From Synergistaceae bacterium (GTDB lineage: Bacteria > Synergistota > Synergistia > Synergistales > Synergistaceae), in the NCBI GenBank assembly GCA_030533085.1, contig JAUNJZ010000001.1, forward strand, positions 24,814 through 88,813: a DNA stretch of 64,000 bases, in the 5' to 3' direction. Positions 55,465 to 59,591 of this stretch are shown here, piece by piece. Each line of letters begins with the position of its first letter. Positions within the stretch are counted from its first letter, which is position 1. The notes beneath the pieces are model-generated. The model was given only the letters and a program-made list of their open reading frames with translations, was not told the origin of the DNA and made no database searches. The translations under genes were made by a program, and so were the position numbers.

Positions 55465-56991
55465 GTGGCTACAAATGAAACTCAGTCGTGGGGCTCAAGA
55501 TGGGGATTTATTATTTCCGCAATCGGCATGACGATAGGAACGGGCGCTATGTGGCGCTTCCCGCGCGTCGCGGCGATGTACGGCGGTATGCCTTTCATGA
55601 TTGCTCTGATCATAGCGTTATTTACATGGAGCATCCCAATTCTGATGTTTGAGGCCTATCTGGGCAAGACGACGCGAGTCGGGCTGATAGCGTCCATCAT
55701 CAAAACTATAGGTAAAAAGTTTGCATGGCTTGGCACCTGCTATGCGTGGATAACAGTATTTCTTACGGCATACTACATTGTCGTATTCGGATGGACGATC
55801 AGATATCTCGCCTATTCGGTAATGGGTACGATAACCGCCGGCGTCGATACAGACGCACTGTGGATACAGTTCTCGACAGGCAGCTACAATATGGTTATAT
55901 GGTGGCTTATCGGTCTGGCGGCCTGTGTCGGAATCATCTATAAGGGCGATTCCAGCGGGATAGAAAAGTTGAGCAAGGTCGTAATGCCCGTGTGGCTGCT
56001 GCTGATTGTCGCGCTGATGATACGCGCCGTCACCCTGCCAAATGGAACGGAAGGCATCAAGTATCTCTTTCTGGACGACTGGGCGGCCTTCAAAAATCCT
56101 ACCATGTGGCTGGAGGCTTTCACCCAGTGCGTGTGGCAGGCTGCTCCCGGGCTTGGCCTGATGCACTCCTACGCCATTTACATGAGCAAAGATGAGGACA
56201 TCAGCCTCAACTGCACGCTTGTGCCATTCTCCGTGACCTCCGCGGCGCTGCTCTGCGGCATGACCGTCGTGCCGACGATATTCGCACTTTCGCCCGACCC
56301 GATGGGAGCTATCGCCTCCGGCAACACAGGCATGACATTCATACACCTCACAAAGCTTTTCACCGTAATTCCCGGCGGAAGATATCTGAGCGTGATGTTC
56401 TTCCTCGCCCTTGTCATAGCGGCCTATACCTCCTCTATATCCATGGTGGAGATGACGACCCGCATCATTCAGGACGCCGGCGTTGAGAGAAAGAAATCCA
56501 TAGCCGGCGCGGGAATAATCCTTCTGGTTTTGGGGATCCCCTCCGCCCTTGACATCAATTTCCTCAACAATCAGGACTGGGTCTACGGCGTCGGAGTTCT
56601 CATCAGCGGCTTGCTGCTGGCCTTTGCCGCCATTAAGATAGGGCTTGGAAAAATATGGAACGAAAGCATCGGCCCATGCTCGGATCTGGATGTTCCTTAC
56701 ATATTCAAAAACATCTATCTCGTCCCATTCCTGTTCGTGGCCATCATGGGCATGTGGGCGTACTCAACGATTCAGAGCTATCCCGGAGAATGGATGCGCT
56801 GGCTGCCGATATCGAAGTACACATACTCCTTCGGGACGCTGCTTTACCAGTGGGCGTTTATGTTCGCAGTAGCCTTCGTGACCAACGGCTTTGTCGCCAA
56901 GCTGATGAGCCGCGGCTTCGACTCCGCACGGGACGTTGACGGCGGCACTTATGATGAAGAAGAGGCGGTGGCTGTAAATGTGGAAAATTAA
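55465..56991 (+). CDS. neurotransmitter:sodium symporter (NSS/SNF) family transporter
   Basis: SRWGFIISAIGMTIGTGAMWRFPRVAAMYGG matches the NSS TM1 signature. About 12 TM segments. GTG start. Confidence 0.85.
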   Translation: MATNETQSWGSRWGFIISAIGMTIGTGAMWRFPRVAAMYGGMPFMIALIIALFTWSIPILMFEAYLGKTTRVGLIASIIKTIGKKFAWLGTCYAWITVFLTAYYIVVFGWTIRYLAYSVMGTITAGVDTDALWIQFSTGSYNMVIWWLIGLAACVGIIYKGDSSGIEKLSKVVMPVWLLLIVALMIRAVTLPNGTEGIKYLFLDDWAAFKNPTMWLEAFTQCVWQAAPGLGLMHSYAIYMSKDEDISLNCTLVPFSVTSAALLCGMTVVPTIFALSPDPMGAIASGNTGMTFIHLTKLFTVIPGGRYLSVMFFLALVIAAYTSSISMVEMTTRIIQDAGVERKKSIAGAGIILLVLGIPSALDINFLNNQDWVYGVGVLISGLLLAFAAIKIGLGKIWNESIGPCSDLDVPYIFKNIYLVPFLFVAIMGMWAYSTIQSYPGEWMRWLPISKYTYSFGTLLYQWAFMFAVAFVTNGFVAKLMSRGFDSARDVDGGTYDEEEAVAVNVEN

Positions 56992-57060
56992 CGCTGTAAT
57001 TCTGCTTAGCGCAGTGTGGGGGTTCAATATTTACCTCCTAATGAAAGCTGCTTCCAGTCA

Positions 57061-57087
57061 AAAGTAGGCTCCCCCCTACTTTGTTTT
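57061..57087 (+). terminator. intrinsic terminator of the NSS gene
   Basis: AAAGTAGG-ctcccc-CCTACTTT followed by GTTTT. Confidence 0.6.
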
Positions 57088-57297
57088 GAAGAGGCGCAGG
57101 CCCCGGGAGACCACAGCTCCCGAGTCGCCTGCGCCTTAAACATGTCCCAAACCGGTAATTCAGCGCCAAACTCCCGCGCCAAAGCGCCCGGCATAAGCAA
57201 AAAGCAGAACGGATCTCCATGCTATGCTGATGCAATATAAGCTGTAATTAAACGGTTATCGCTCCCATACCTGATAACAGGGAGGGGGTGTATCCTG

Positions 57298-57381
57298 ATG
57301 CTTCTCGTTACCTTTCTGGTCTCTGTTATGGCAAGCGTAGTCGGCTACTATGTTTGCAAATGGTTGGACAGAGATGACTAA
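57298..57381 (+). CDS. candidate type I toxin (27-aa hydrophobic peptide, Fst/PepA1-like)
   Basis: MLLVTFLVSVMASVVGYYVCKWLDRDD. The GGGAGGGGG RBS is 8 nt upstream, and an upstream CTCCC could pair with the SD. A strong terminator lies 23 nt downstream. Confidence 0.5.
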   Translation: MLLVTFLVSVMASVVGYYVCKWLDRDD

Positions 57382-57404
57382 TGCGATAACCGGCCAGTAT
57401 AAGA

Positions 57405-57437
57405 AACGCCCCGGCGGCTATCCGGGGCGTTTTGTGT
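57405..57437 (+). terminator. intrinsic terminator after the toxin-like ORF
   Basis: AACGCCCCGG-cggctat-CCGGGGCGTT followed by TTGTGT. Confidence 0.7.
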
Positions 57438-57666
57438 ATCTCAATGCTTTTCGTTACCAGCAACTATATTGTAGCACATTACAGCAGGCCGTCAAGGCGG
57501 AATGCCAAAATAACGTTATACGGCTAATTGCAAAAAATAGAGACGGAGTCAAAAGTAAAGTTAAATGAGAACGCCCTATTTTATTTGTGTTTTGCCATTA
57601 AAAGTCTCTTTCATGGCGTTCGTAAGGCGAAAGCTCCGCTTTCATGTGACTTGGCTGAGTTATATA

Positions 57667-57697
57667 GCCGCTCCGAAAATTTTCGTTCGGAGCGGCT
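57667..57697. terminator. bidirectional hairpin downstream of the surface-protein gene
   Basis: AGCCGCTCCGAA-(7 nt)-TTCGGAGCGGCT, a 12-bp stem with a T-run on the plus side. Confidence 0.6.
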
Positions 57698-57728
57698 TTT
57701 GTCATTTAGCTTTTACTCTGTCTTTTCG

Positions 57729-59591
57729 TTACTTCTTCCTTCTCCACAGCATCAGCGGCAGCAGCGCGAGCAGAGCCGCCGCGCCCGTACCTGCCGCGCA
57801 GCCGCCGGAGGAGCCGCCGTCAGGGGTCGGGGTCGGGGTGGGGGTGGTGGATGTCCTTGCAAACAGAGCCGGGTCAGCAATATAGTTATCTCTCTTGTCA
57901 AGGTCAAAGTCGCCGTTGTCTTTGATGTAAAGGACGAGCTTGTAGGTTTCAGATGAGGATATCGACGAAGCGATGGCATCTGTGGACGTTAAGACTGTGA
58001 AATGTCCGTCTGTGTAATCCGCGGATGTGGCGGCGTAGGTGAACTTAATGCCGGAGAAGTCCGCCTTTACTTTTATCAGGTTTATATCTTCCGGTTTCTC
58101 CGCGAGGAAATCGGAGCCTTTCAGCTCAAATGTCGCGACGGAGAGGTTTCCGGCTGCGCTAACAGTCGTTTCAAATAGCGGAGTCGGGTTGATTTCGCTG
58201 ACCGTCGTATTTCCTGAGGCAAGGAGCGATTCCGCGGCGGTCTGGAGCCTTGTCGTTTCAAATGAAATTCCGCCCACTCCAAGCGCGATAAGGTCTGACG
58301 ATTTCACGCCTATCCGCGTCGCATAAACATCCAGAGAGGCGACGTCAAAGGCCGGAACGTCGGAAGAGAGAGCGTCCGCGCTGGCAGGTATGAAAGCGGC
58401 CGGGGTCGCGACAGGAGTCAGCTTCGCTCCATCCCTGACGCCGCTCATCGTTATTATGGCAAGTTGTCCGATATTTCCGCCGACCTGAGCGTTAGTATAA
58501 TGTGTCTCCGTTGGGCCGTCATACCCGTAAATCCCATTCCCCACATTGACCCAGAGTATCTTTGTATTGCTGTCATAGGCAATGCCCGCGCCATAGGCGG
58601 TCGCGTCAAACTGCCTGAACAGCGTCCACTTTGTAAAGTCTCCGAGATTCGCTATGGTCGTTTCATATACGCGATGGCTATAAGTATAGTTCCAGCTCGC
58701 ATCAACAGTGTAGCCGAATGCCTGTACATAAACATTATCCCCGGCAATGGCAATCCCGCTGAAATAGTGGCACCATGAGGAGTCGGCAGCGTGAGCTATA
58801 TCCGCGGATATGATGGGAGTGCTTGACATTGTGTCTAAGTCAACGACCTCGATCAAAGAACTGGGATTATAACCATTGGCGGTATACGAATCCCCATTAC
58901 TGACGACGTAGAGCTTGTTGCCCTGCTGAACAAAAACGCCGCTGCCCATTCCGTTGACGTTTTTGCCATATATATCAGCGCTCGCGGCAACTGATAAATC
59001 AGCGTTTAATTTCACAAGGTGAGATTGTTTATAATCGGTATAGCCGCTATGATCAGAGAAAATGGCGTAGAGATACCCTCCGTATGCGACAAGCCCTTCT
59101 CCGGGCGTTGTGCGGCCGGAGATATTGCAGTTATAAACGGTATTATCGGCCGTATACTTGTCATCTGCCGTATCAAATCTTGAAACATTACCGCCGTAGG
59201 TTATACCATAAAGATACCCGCCAAGAGAGGCCATGGCGCGCATATTGGTCAAATGGTCATTTTTCGTCTCTGCCAGCGGCCTTGTCCAGGCGGTTGCGGC
59301 AGGGTCGTATATCCATATTGTGTCTGCTGCGTTTCCGTATGCATCACCGCACAAAGCCAGCGCCACTCTGGAAGCTCCAGCGGCATTCGTAAAGTTTGCG
59401 ATGCGCTGACCAGCGCTGCCGGTCGTGGTAACAGCGACTCTCGCAGGAGCGTTGGTTCCTCTGATTGTACCAATGACAGCCGGGTCGCTATAGGTTGCCT
59501 GTGCCGTGTAAAGAACGTCCGCCGACGCCGATATCGCCAAAACGGCGCAGAGCAGGAGCGCGGTAATAACGGTGCTGATTTTTCTTTTCAT
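57729..59591 (-). CDS. secreted propeller-like surface protein with PT linker and Synerg-CTERM-type sorting signal
   Basis: Signal peptide MKRKISTVITALLLCAVLAISASA. Recurring blade-like strands GGYLYGI, GGYLYAIF, NKLYVVS, DNVYVQA and KILWVNV. The C-terminus is TPTPTPTPDGGSSGGCAAGTGAAALLALLPLMLWRRKK. AAGGAGG RBS, 21 nt after the receptor gene. Confidence 0.65.
   Translation of the reverse strand: MKRKISTVITALLLCAVLAISASADVLYTAQATYSDPAVIGTIRGTNAPARVAVTTTGSAGQRIANFTNAAGASRVALALCGDAYGNAADTIWIYDPAATAWTRPLAETKNDHLTNMRAMASLGGYLYGITYGGNVSRFDTADDKYTADNTVYNCNISGRTTPGEGLVAYGGYLYAIFSDHSGYTDYKQSHLVKLNADLSVAASADIYGKNVNGMGSGVFVQQGNKLYVVSNGDSYTANGYNPSSLIEVVDLDTMSSTPIISADIAHAADSSWCHYFSGIAIAGDNVYVQAFGYTVDASWNYTYSHRVYETTIANLGDFTKWTLFRQFDATAYGAGIAYDSNTKILWVNVGNGIYGYDGPTETHYTNAQVGGNIGQLAIITMSGVRDGAKLTPVATPAAFIPASADALSSDVPAFDVASLDVYATRIGVKSSDLIALGVGGISFETTRLQTAAESLLASGNTTVSEINPTPLFETTVSAAGNLSVATFELKGSDFLAEKPEDINLIKVKADFSGIKFTYAATSADYTDGHFTVLTSTDAIASSISSSETYKLVLYIKDNGDFDLDKRDNYIADPALFARTSTTPTPTPTPDGGSSGGCAAGTGAAALLALLPLMLWRRKK

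Follow-up and report, generated by a model that had tools for sequence, protein, structure and literature searches.

The intergenic region studied here lies in a 64,000-nt stretch of a Synergistaceae bacterium genome (assembly GCA_030533085.1, contig JAUNJZ010000001.1, positions 24,814 to 88,813). We refer to this whole stretch as the window and give all coordinates within it. Upstream, the region is bounded by a sodium-dependent transporter gene ending at 56991; downstream, a minus-strand gene ending at 57729 encodes a Synerg-CTERM surface protein (TIGR04564, 38.1 bits against a cut-off of 22.5), in keeping with a host from Synergistota. Between them we observed a 27-codon open reading frame (ORF) on the plus strand and, on the opposite strand, a strong promoter that converges on it. 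An earlier reading of the letters, here called the original prediction, had proposed a type I toxin-antitoxin locus at this place but had left the antisense RNA unnamed. The sequence analysis reported below supports that proposal: all architectural elements are present and are conserved in ~90 homologous loci. In addition, a conserved convergent promoter and a locus-specific direct repeat now predict the missing antisense RNA. The anatomy of the locus, its conservation, the coding signature, the covariation of the mRNA fold and the locus-specific co-variation of the antisense region were all computed directly.

The coding frame and the predicted toxin mRNA

The ORF occupies 57298-57381 on the plus strand and, as read from the window sequence, its 27-amino-acid product is MLLVTFLVSVMASVVGYYVCKWLDRDD. 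Residues 1-20 are hydrophobic and are followed by K21, W22 and LDRDD, giving a hydrophobic helix, a KW pair and an acidic tail. The Shine-Dalgarno sequence (SD) GGGAGGGGG lies at 57280-57288 on the same strand with the ATG 9 nt further on, and homologs carry an SD-like purine run at the same spacing. Both the frame and its strong SD are as the original prediction described them, and the frame carries a coding signature. Codon-position entropy is 0.80 bits at position 1, 0.35 bits at position 2 and 1.19 bits at position 3, and synonymous changes account for 45% of codon differences in the ORF frame, compared with 15% and 8% in the other two frames. Across 92 core sequences, little or no variation was seen at F, S, V, A, K, W, L and D, and none at K, W and D. 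In ~90 loci the reading frame is uninterrupted and has both a start codon and a correctly spaced SD. The ORF is protein-coding.

We then compared the peptide with the Fst/PepA1/Ldr family, to which it had been likened. The likeness holds at the level of the Fst/Ldr superfamily signature, in which a hydrophobic transmembrane (TM) helix leads to a conserved Trp and a charged C-terminus (PMC2887945, PMC7472228), but not at the level of the curated NCBIfam and Pfam models. The P/D/S/T-XXX-G(C) motif that is usual in the TM helix of most Fst/Ldr members is not matched. At the aligned positions the peptide reads A12-S-V-V-G16, and the family as a whole has an invariant Ala followed four residues on by Gly or Ala.

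A putative toxin −10 element, TGTAAT (57243-57248, plus strand), aligns with TATAAT in the paralogous locus described below and lies 6 nt upstream of the first helix arm of the transcript. Over the family, the 3′ end of a −10-like hexamer falls at a median of −46 relative to the start codon; −10-like words are common upstream on both strands (86 on the plus strand and 62 on the other), and the strand control is therefore uninformative. Placing the ends by promoter and terminator, we predict a toxin mRNA of ~185 nt (57254-57438, plus strand) as the analogue of RNA I, with a fold of −73.3 kcal/mol and a z-score of −3.6. In this fold the leader is structured and the SD is paired, with a mean unpaired probability of 0.23. 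The 3′ part of the SD is held by UCCC paired with GGGG and the 5′ part by CCUG paired with CAGG, and these pairs are kept in 69-75% of alignment cells. The original prediction had named GCTCCC (57261-57266) as the element that could sequester the SD. The predicted fold bears this out: the anti-SD TCCC within it (57263-57266, plus strand) pairs with GGGG at 57285-57288, and the pairs are kept in 75% of cells. Since this helix varies on one side only, it is conserved rather than proven by covariation.

The fold was tested on an independent MAFFT alignment of 90 loci, using 36 pairs. These pairs were standard in 83.2% of cells, compared with 34-51% when the partners were slid. Double changes numbered 265, compared with 108 ± 12 in shuffles (none of 500 as high), and the covariation score was 0.281 against 0.181. 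Because the loci are related, the shuffle test overstates the signal, and we give the slid controls more weight. RNAalifold returned the ORF helix only, and the remaining helices were tested by explicit pair counts.

The first of these joins the two ends of the message. The 5′ arm GTTATCGC (57255-57262, plus strand) pairs with the 3′ arm GCGATAAC (57383-57390, plus strand), which lies just past the stop codon; the two form an inverted repeat, pair in the fold and show compensatory changes at 7 of 8 pairs. The coding region is itself structured between 57319 and 57375 (plus strand), with an outer helix (57319-57327 with 57367-57375) paired in 93% of cells and an inner hairpin (57331-57341 with 57347-57357) paired in 88%. 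Many compensatory changes were seen in both. Here protein and RNA are linked: Gly (GGA) after WLD goes with TCC at the paired Ser codon, and Arg (AGA) goes with TCT.

The 5′ arm also has a local alternative partner, GATAAC (57273-57278, plus strand). The inverted repeat that it forms with GTTATC (57255-57260) was part of the original prediction; it is present and it covaries, being paired in 80.5% of cells compared with 19-61% for slid partners, with 41 double changes compared with 13 ± 9 in shuffles. Thus the 5′ arm takes part in a three-way covariation, in which whole triples change together: GUUGUC/GGCAAC/GCGACAA, GCUGUC/CCAGCA/GACAGC and, in the window, GUUAUC/GAUAAC/GCGAUAAC. A further helix connects the Trp-Leu codons GGTTGG (57362-57367, plus strand) to a conserved YYAGCC-type motif that follows the 3′ arm (CCGGCC in the window, 57390-57395, plus strand) and is complementary to them. 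The motif covaries with the Leu codon, as in GGCTGG/CCAGCC, GGTTAG/CTAACC and GGCTCG/TGAGCC, and one of its pairs is AU in 42 cases and GC in 36. This helix crosses both the 5′-3′ helix and the outer helix of the ORF. The covarying helices are incompatible with a single nested fold, and the RNA is therefore either pseudoknotted or passes through alternative folds. The most economical reading is that folding proceeds in order, the local helix shielding the nascent 5′ end until the 3′ arm has been made.

In many Lachnospiraceae members of the family (L054-L056, L059 and others) we also noticed ~30 nt of additional conserved sequence, for example CTAACGGAGTAGTCCACCGCAACGGAC, separating the AGCC motif from the terminator; these nucleotides are absent from the window copy.

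The shared terminator, the direct repeat and the predicted antisense RNA

Downstream of the ORF, AAACGCCCCGG and CCGGGGCGTTT (57404-57414 and 57422-57432) form a perfect hairpin of 11 bp with a 7-nt loop, followed by TGTGT. The hairpin begins 22 nt past the toxin stop codon. The original prediction was right about a perfect hairpin after the stop, but its size and distance need to be corrected from 10 bp and 23 nt. As an inverted repeat (57404-57432) that is A-rich before and T-rich after, and that folds on either strand, it is a candidate terminator in both directions. In 94 of 95 loci the ORF is followed by a hairpin of −10 kcal/mol or stronger.

A consensus scan of 56900-57800 gave a single strong promoter, and it lies on the minus strand: TTGACG-16 nt-TGcTACAAT, with 10 of 12 matches plus the TG extension. 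Its −35 (TTGACG) is at 57495-57490 and its −10 at 57473-57468 (57468-57495 overall), and the paralog keeps it. Among the 74 loci with a clear direct repeat (see below), 56 have a minus-strand promoter at a fixed distance past the repeat and 3 have one on the plus strand. The 3′ end of the antisense −10 falls at a median of 11.5 nt beyond the repeat, and 45 of the 56 promoters carry the TG extension. These counts come from a scored scan, used in place of a strict regular expression that required a CGTCAA-type −35 and caught 18 of 95 loci.

From this promoter and the shared hairpin we predict an antisense antitoxin RNA of ~60-66 nt (57396-57461, minus strand), the analogue of RNA II. Its predicted fold consists of a free 5′ tail of ~30 nt and the terminator hairpin. 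The predicted 3′ end is at the terminator, 15-22 nt past the toxin stop codon, and the toxin ORF is not overlapped.

A direct repeat has its first copy, GTGTATCCTGATGCTTCTCGTTACC, at 57288-57312 (plus strand) and its second, GTGTATCTCAATGCTTTTCGTTACC, at 57434-57458 (plus strand), and the two agree at 21 of 25 positions. The first copy, the putative antisense target, covers the spacer, the start codon and codons 2-5. The second, read on the minus strand, forms the antisense 5′ tail. Because the tail repeats the toxin start region, it is complementary to that spacer, start codon and early codons, that is, to the translation initiation region. The best duplex between the two has 23 bp in three blocks (8 + 8 + 7), spans 57287-57313 and reaches −32.0 kcal/mol. 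Shuffled tails gave −16.4 ± 2.7 kcal/mol, and none of 500 equalled the cognate duplex. Over 95 loci, the start region of a locus scored on average 25.5 against the stretch beyond its own terminator, compared with 13.6 for other loci. For 79% of these loci, no more than 5% of unrelated start regions did as well as the locus's own; the median z was 5.2. The repeat is locus-specific, and the antisense tail co-varies with its own start region.

We searched the genome for paralogs of the peptide, as the original prediction had proposed, and found one further copy with the same anatomy (G000:C26:289-387), encoding MSFLTFLFSVVAGVVANCVSKWLDGDERDNQP. Its parts come in the same order, with TGTTATAAT as toxin promoter and the same antisense promoter, but its repeat differs, being TCGTTTCTAACCTT at the start codon and again past the terminator. 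The cognate duplexes of the window and C26 copies have energies of −32.0 and −32.2 kcal/mol, and the crossed duplexes −15.6 and −20.3 kcal/mol. The crossed values are at the level of shuffled tails, and the two modules should therefore not cross-talk. Absence of cross-talk has likewise been described for par-pAD1 and par-EF0409 (PMC7472228).

In another Synergistaceae genus, a locus (L029, G021:C45) has a 5′ untranslated region (UTR) segment, CGCTCCCATACCTGATAACAGGGAGGGGGTGT, that is identical to window positions 57260-57291, and its peptide resembles that of the C26 copy, not that of the window. This mosaic suggests, from sequence comparison, recombination between modules. Separately, a metagenome contig (L143, Logan SRR24915808) that is 100% identical to the window ends in the 5′ UTR of the module, at the SD (57284). 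This end may be an assembly branch arising from the shared stretch (32 nt, in another module) or may reflect strain variation.

Distribution in Synergistota and beyond

Within Synergistota, we combined a DNA search of 60 relatives with a profile search of 268 genomes, some of them incomplete. Clear copies were found in ~14 of the 268 genomes. In the same family as the window, 13 of 78 genomes were matched, one of them doubtfully (18.7 bits), and in another family 1 of 23. Several Synergistota genomes carry 3-6 copies, some in tandem. Examples of tandem or closely spaced copies are G007:C2 373-812, G019:C1 495855-496530 and G230:C159 23812-25689; some of these are broken by a stop within the match.

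A wider search with a four-sequence alignment, taking one genome per species, gave at least 597 pattern matches, of which at least 529 loci were confirmed. The locus is more than a chance arrangement: beside the second copy in the same genome, it recurs in 13-14 other Synergistota genomes and in at least 529 loci of other genomes, and its ORF carries the codon-position signature given above. Of the best 80 of the at least 529 confirmed loci, 75 are in Bacillota, and 57 of these belong to Lachnospiraceae; single cases occur in Negativicutes and Erysipelotrichia. Two more of the best 80 lie on contigs of Bacteroidota metagenome-assembled genomes (L094 and L104; Paludibacteraceae and Muribaculaceae). 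They are typical family members, and their placement may reflect either transfer or a binning error.

Copies lacking annotation also occur in five phage records and on small plasmids from Waltera, Mediterraneibacter gnavus, Ligilactobacillus salivarius, Streptococcus suis and Clostridium perfringens. Since members ride on small plasmids and in phage records, a par-type element fits this distribution. An exact look-up of ten family peptides in a collection of 15 billion proteins found none of them present; the copies are missing from all the protein and RNA databases searched because so short an ORF escapes gene callers.

A tree of the mRNA region was poorly resolved, and in its best version the Synergistota label changes five times. 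Repeated independent transfer into Synergistota is nevertheless not supported, as a single clade is not rejected by the approximately unbiased (AU) test (p = 0.76). In Synergistota, the presence of the module is patchy, multi-copy and in one family, within a locus family centred on Lachnospiraceae.

Interpretation, related systems and flanking features

Taken together, the anatomy of the locus and the comparative evidence make it very probable that this is a chromosomal type I toxin-antitoxin module with the mode of action of pAD1 par. We infer two transcripts with the ends given above, repression by the antisense RNA, and a peptide that would insert into the membrane and be toxic; the module might serve to stabilize a DNA segment or take part in a stress or phage response. 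A weakly promoted toxin mRNA (~57254-57438, plus strand) would encode a 27-residue, single-helix membrane peptide. This mRNA would be kept inert by its own fold, with its extreme 5′ end paired, its SD paired with the upstream UCCC and its ORF held in two helices. The strong convergent promoter would drive an antisense RNA of ~65 nt, running from 57461 down to ~57396 on the minus strand. As the terminator hairpin is common to both RNAs, the antisense RNA would be fully complementary to the 3′ end of the mRNA. Its free 5′ tail would in turn pair with 57287-57313, covering the spacer, start codon and early codons, and block ribosome binding. On loss of the antisense RNA, the peptide would be translated and inserted into the inner membrane, and growth would be arrested.

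Several results weigh against this model. The toxin promoter of the window copy is poor: the −10 TGTAAT is weak because its second base is G, there is no clear −35, and the consensus scan gave no plus-strand promoter. The window copy may thus be weakly expressed or silent. The terminator loop, CGGCUAU on one strand and AUAGCCG on the other, lacks a YUNR U-turn motif, although this motif is not universal among par-like loci (PMC7472228), and the minus-strand U run past the hairpin is short (UUUCUU). Curated resources gave little recognition. With the NCBIfam Fst model NF033608 the score is 13.5 bits, where the cut-off is 26, and the model matched 2 of 9 family members at all; in a six-frame search of the genome it found neither the window nor the C26 locus. 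Pfam, including Fst_toxin, gave no match to the peptide, and no Rfam type I antitoxin family, fstAT among them, matched at E ≤ 10 in 56000-59000. A comparison with solved protein chains gave none at E ≤ 10, and the four weak matches include neither Fst nor any other type I toxin. In the papers searched we found no toxicity report for this branch and no description of it under its peptide motif or among type I toxins of Lachnospiraceae or Synergistetes.

The weak toxin promoter could mean that the module is of par type but that the window copy is a silent or decaying chromosomal relic, its ORF intact and its promoter disabled. We think this unlikely. The −10 does lack the key A at position 2, the −35 is not recognizable, the consensus scan saw no plus-strand promoter, and relatives hold broken copies with stops inside the match or with replaced 5′ regions. 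In the window copy, however, the ORF, the SD, all helices, the repeat (21/25) and the antisense promoter are intact. A low level of toxin message with antitoxin RNA in excess is also what has been described for characterized par homologs (PMC7472228), and the consensus used for the scan may not be that of Synergistota promoters.

The peptide might instead be an antisense-controlled small membrane protein that is no toxin at native levels, modulating for example the transporter or the envelope, with the antisense RNA tuning its synthesis. Against this, the family is multi-copy and patchy, it occurs on small plasmids and phages, and its neighbours change, with no single gene as a constant companion. 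A locus-specific antisense on top of three layers of translational silencing is, moreover, a hallmark of a harmful product. On the other side, toxicity is a prediction, and the locus is flanked by a sodium-dependent transporter gene and a TonB-receptor/BtuG-like operon; chromosomal par homologs often adjoin transporters (PMC4147584, PMC7472228). The very strong conservation of the peptide core could also reflect a specific protein partner. On balance we regard such a non-toxic protein as quite unlikely. Finally, the strong conservation of RNA structure, which extends into the ORF, might be taken to mean that only structured non-coding RNAs are made and that the ORF is incidental. This is highly improbable given the codon-entropy pattern and the synonymous excess, both confined to the ORF frame, the open frame with start codon and well-spaced SD in ~90 loci, and the invariant K, W and D.

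The par-type model rests on comparison with the par locus of Enterococcus faecalis pAD1 (Fst, RNA I/RNA II) and with par-EF0409; par-like features and the Fst/Ldr signature were taken as defined in PMC7472228, PMC4147584 and PMC2887945. In the par layout, converging RNAs share a common terminator, and direct repeats give a second region of complementarity at the start region (PMC4147584, PMC7472228). The window locus resembles these systems in its convergent promoters, which are predicted here, in the bidirectional terminator common to both RNAs with an overlap that stops short of the ORF, and in a direct repeat that is transcribed both ways and makes the antisense 5′ end complementary to the translation initiation region. 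Further points of likeness are the intramolecular helices that sequester the SD and the extreme mRNA 5′ end, an antisense RNA of ~40-70 nt, a peptide of ~30 residues that combines a TM helix with a charged tail, and paralogs with diverged repeats in the same cell. In contrast to par of pAD1, the repeat here is a single long, interrupted one (8 + 8 + 7 bp) and not the named DRa/DRb, and the 5′ end pairs just past the stop codon and has a second covarying partner. There is also no YUNR loop, the toxin lacks PXXXG and scores below the Fst cut-offs, and the host is a diderm member of Synergistaceae.

Closer relatives may already be on record. [quoted passage not shown] Enterocloster lavalensis and dozens of other Lachnospiraceae have members of the family described here, which carries the superfamily signature. 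The RNA features were not described in that study. Its homologs were confined to Firmicutes and enterobacteria, and it saw no sign of recent transfer between distantly related bacteria (PMC2887945). The literature consulted places Fst/par-like systems in Firmicutes only and Ldr in enterobacteria only, and argues against horizontal spread.

Other type I systems share parts of this architecture. SprA1/SprA1AS of Staphylococcus aureus is a par homolog (PMC8594479, PMC7472228) whose antisense RNA, like the one predicted here, overlaps the mRNA 3′ end and acts at the start region through its non-overlapping 5′ domain; its toxin belongs to another sequence family and its host differs, and the peptide here is shorter, with an acidic tail. 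The txpA/RatA and bsrG/SR4 systems of Bacillus subtilis likewise have convergent, 3′-overlapping antisense RNAs and are associated with prophages or mobile elements. Their antisense RNAs overlap the 3′ part of the ORF and act mainly through mRNA degradation, whereas here the two RNAs overlap in the terminator alone, and the start region is targeted by a distinct repeat. Clostridioides difficile type I toxins (NCBIfam NF047374) also have convergent antisense RNAs, and 8 of 9 family members were weakly matched by that model over the helix, with a best E of 9e-4. The score is 13 bits against a cut-off of 60, and those toxins have 50-53 amino acids, Lys-rich tails and long antisense overlaps.

In hok/sok of plasmid R1 and aapA1/isoA1 of Helicobacter pylori, long-range 5′-3′ pairing closes the full-length toxin mRNA, and mutually exclusive helices are used. 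The mRNA predicted here shares the 5′-3′ pairing and the alternative helices. Those systems differ in that their antisense RNA overlaps the 5′ region and activation occurs by 3′ trimming. A toxin mRNA that is pseudoknotted or switching, with ordered refolding in the style of hok/AapA1 inside a par-style module, in a family that crossed from Firmicutes into the diderm Synergistota, is a combined reading that we offer only tentatively and consider possible rather than probable. The Fst/Ldr literature denies any such passage between phyla. As a separate candidate, hok-like activation was considered and is not supported: removal of the 3′ arm in silico shifted SD accessibility by a median of +0.02.

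A par-style module in a diderm phylum would widen the host range of Fst/par-like systems and would offer a natural setting in which to ask whether the inner membrane of a diderm cell is a site of action for peptides of this kind. Hundreds of copies of genes for apparently tightly regulated membrane peptides lie unannotated in gut Firmicutes, plasmids, phages and Synergistaceae. Their dense covariation could make them a compact model for toxin-mRNA folding and antisense specificity.

The sequences on either side of the module have features of their own. A hydrophobic ORF of 29 codons, MWKINAVILLSAVWGFNIYLLMKAASSQK (56978-57067, plus strand), overlaps the transporter stop codon and is a called gene on the public contig. 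At 57061-57137 (plus strand) lies the terminator of the transporter gene, AAAGTAGG-CTCCCC-CCTACTTTGTTTTG, with immediately after it a long, GC-rich, imperfect hairpin, GGCGCAGGC...GCCTGCGCC (~57093-57137). On the downstream side, the plus strand is structured between 57537 and 57707 (fold z = −5.4). This stretch ends in a strong terminator-like hairpin (57666-57697) followed by TTTTGTCATTT, and no plus-strand gene comes afterwards. Its match to Rfam rli38 is weak and sub-threshold (25 bits against 49). Only the hairpin has look-alikes in the genome (C20 and C60), and there was no match in the 78 genomes of the family. The stretch may serve as terminator for the convergent BtuG-like gene, or it may be a small RNA.

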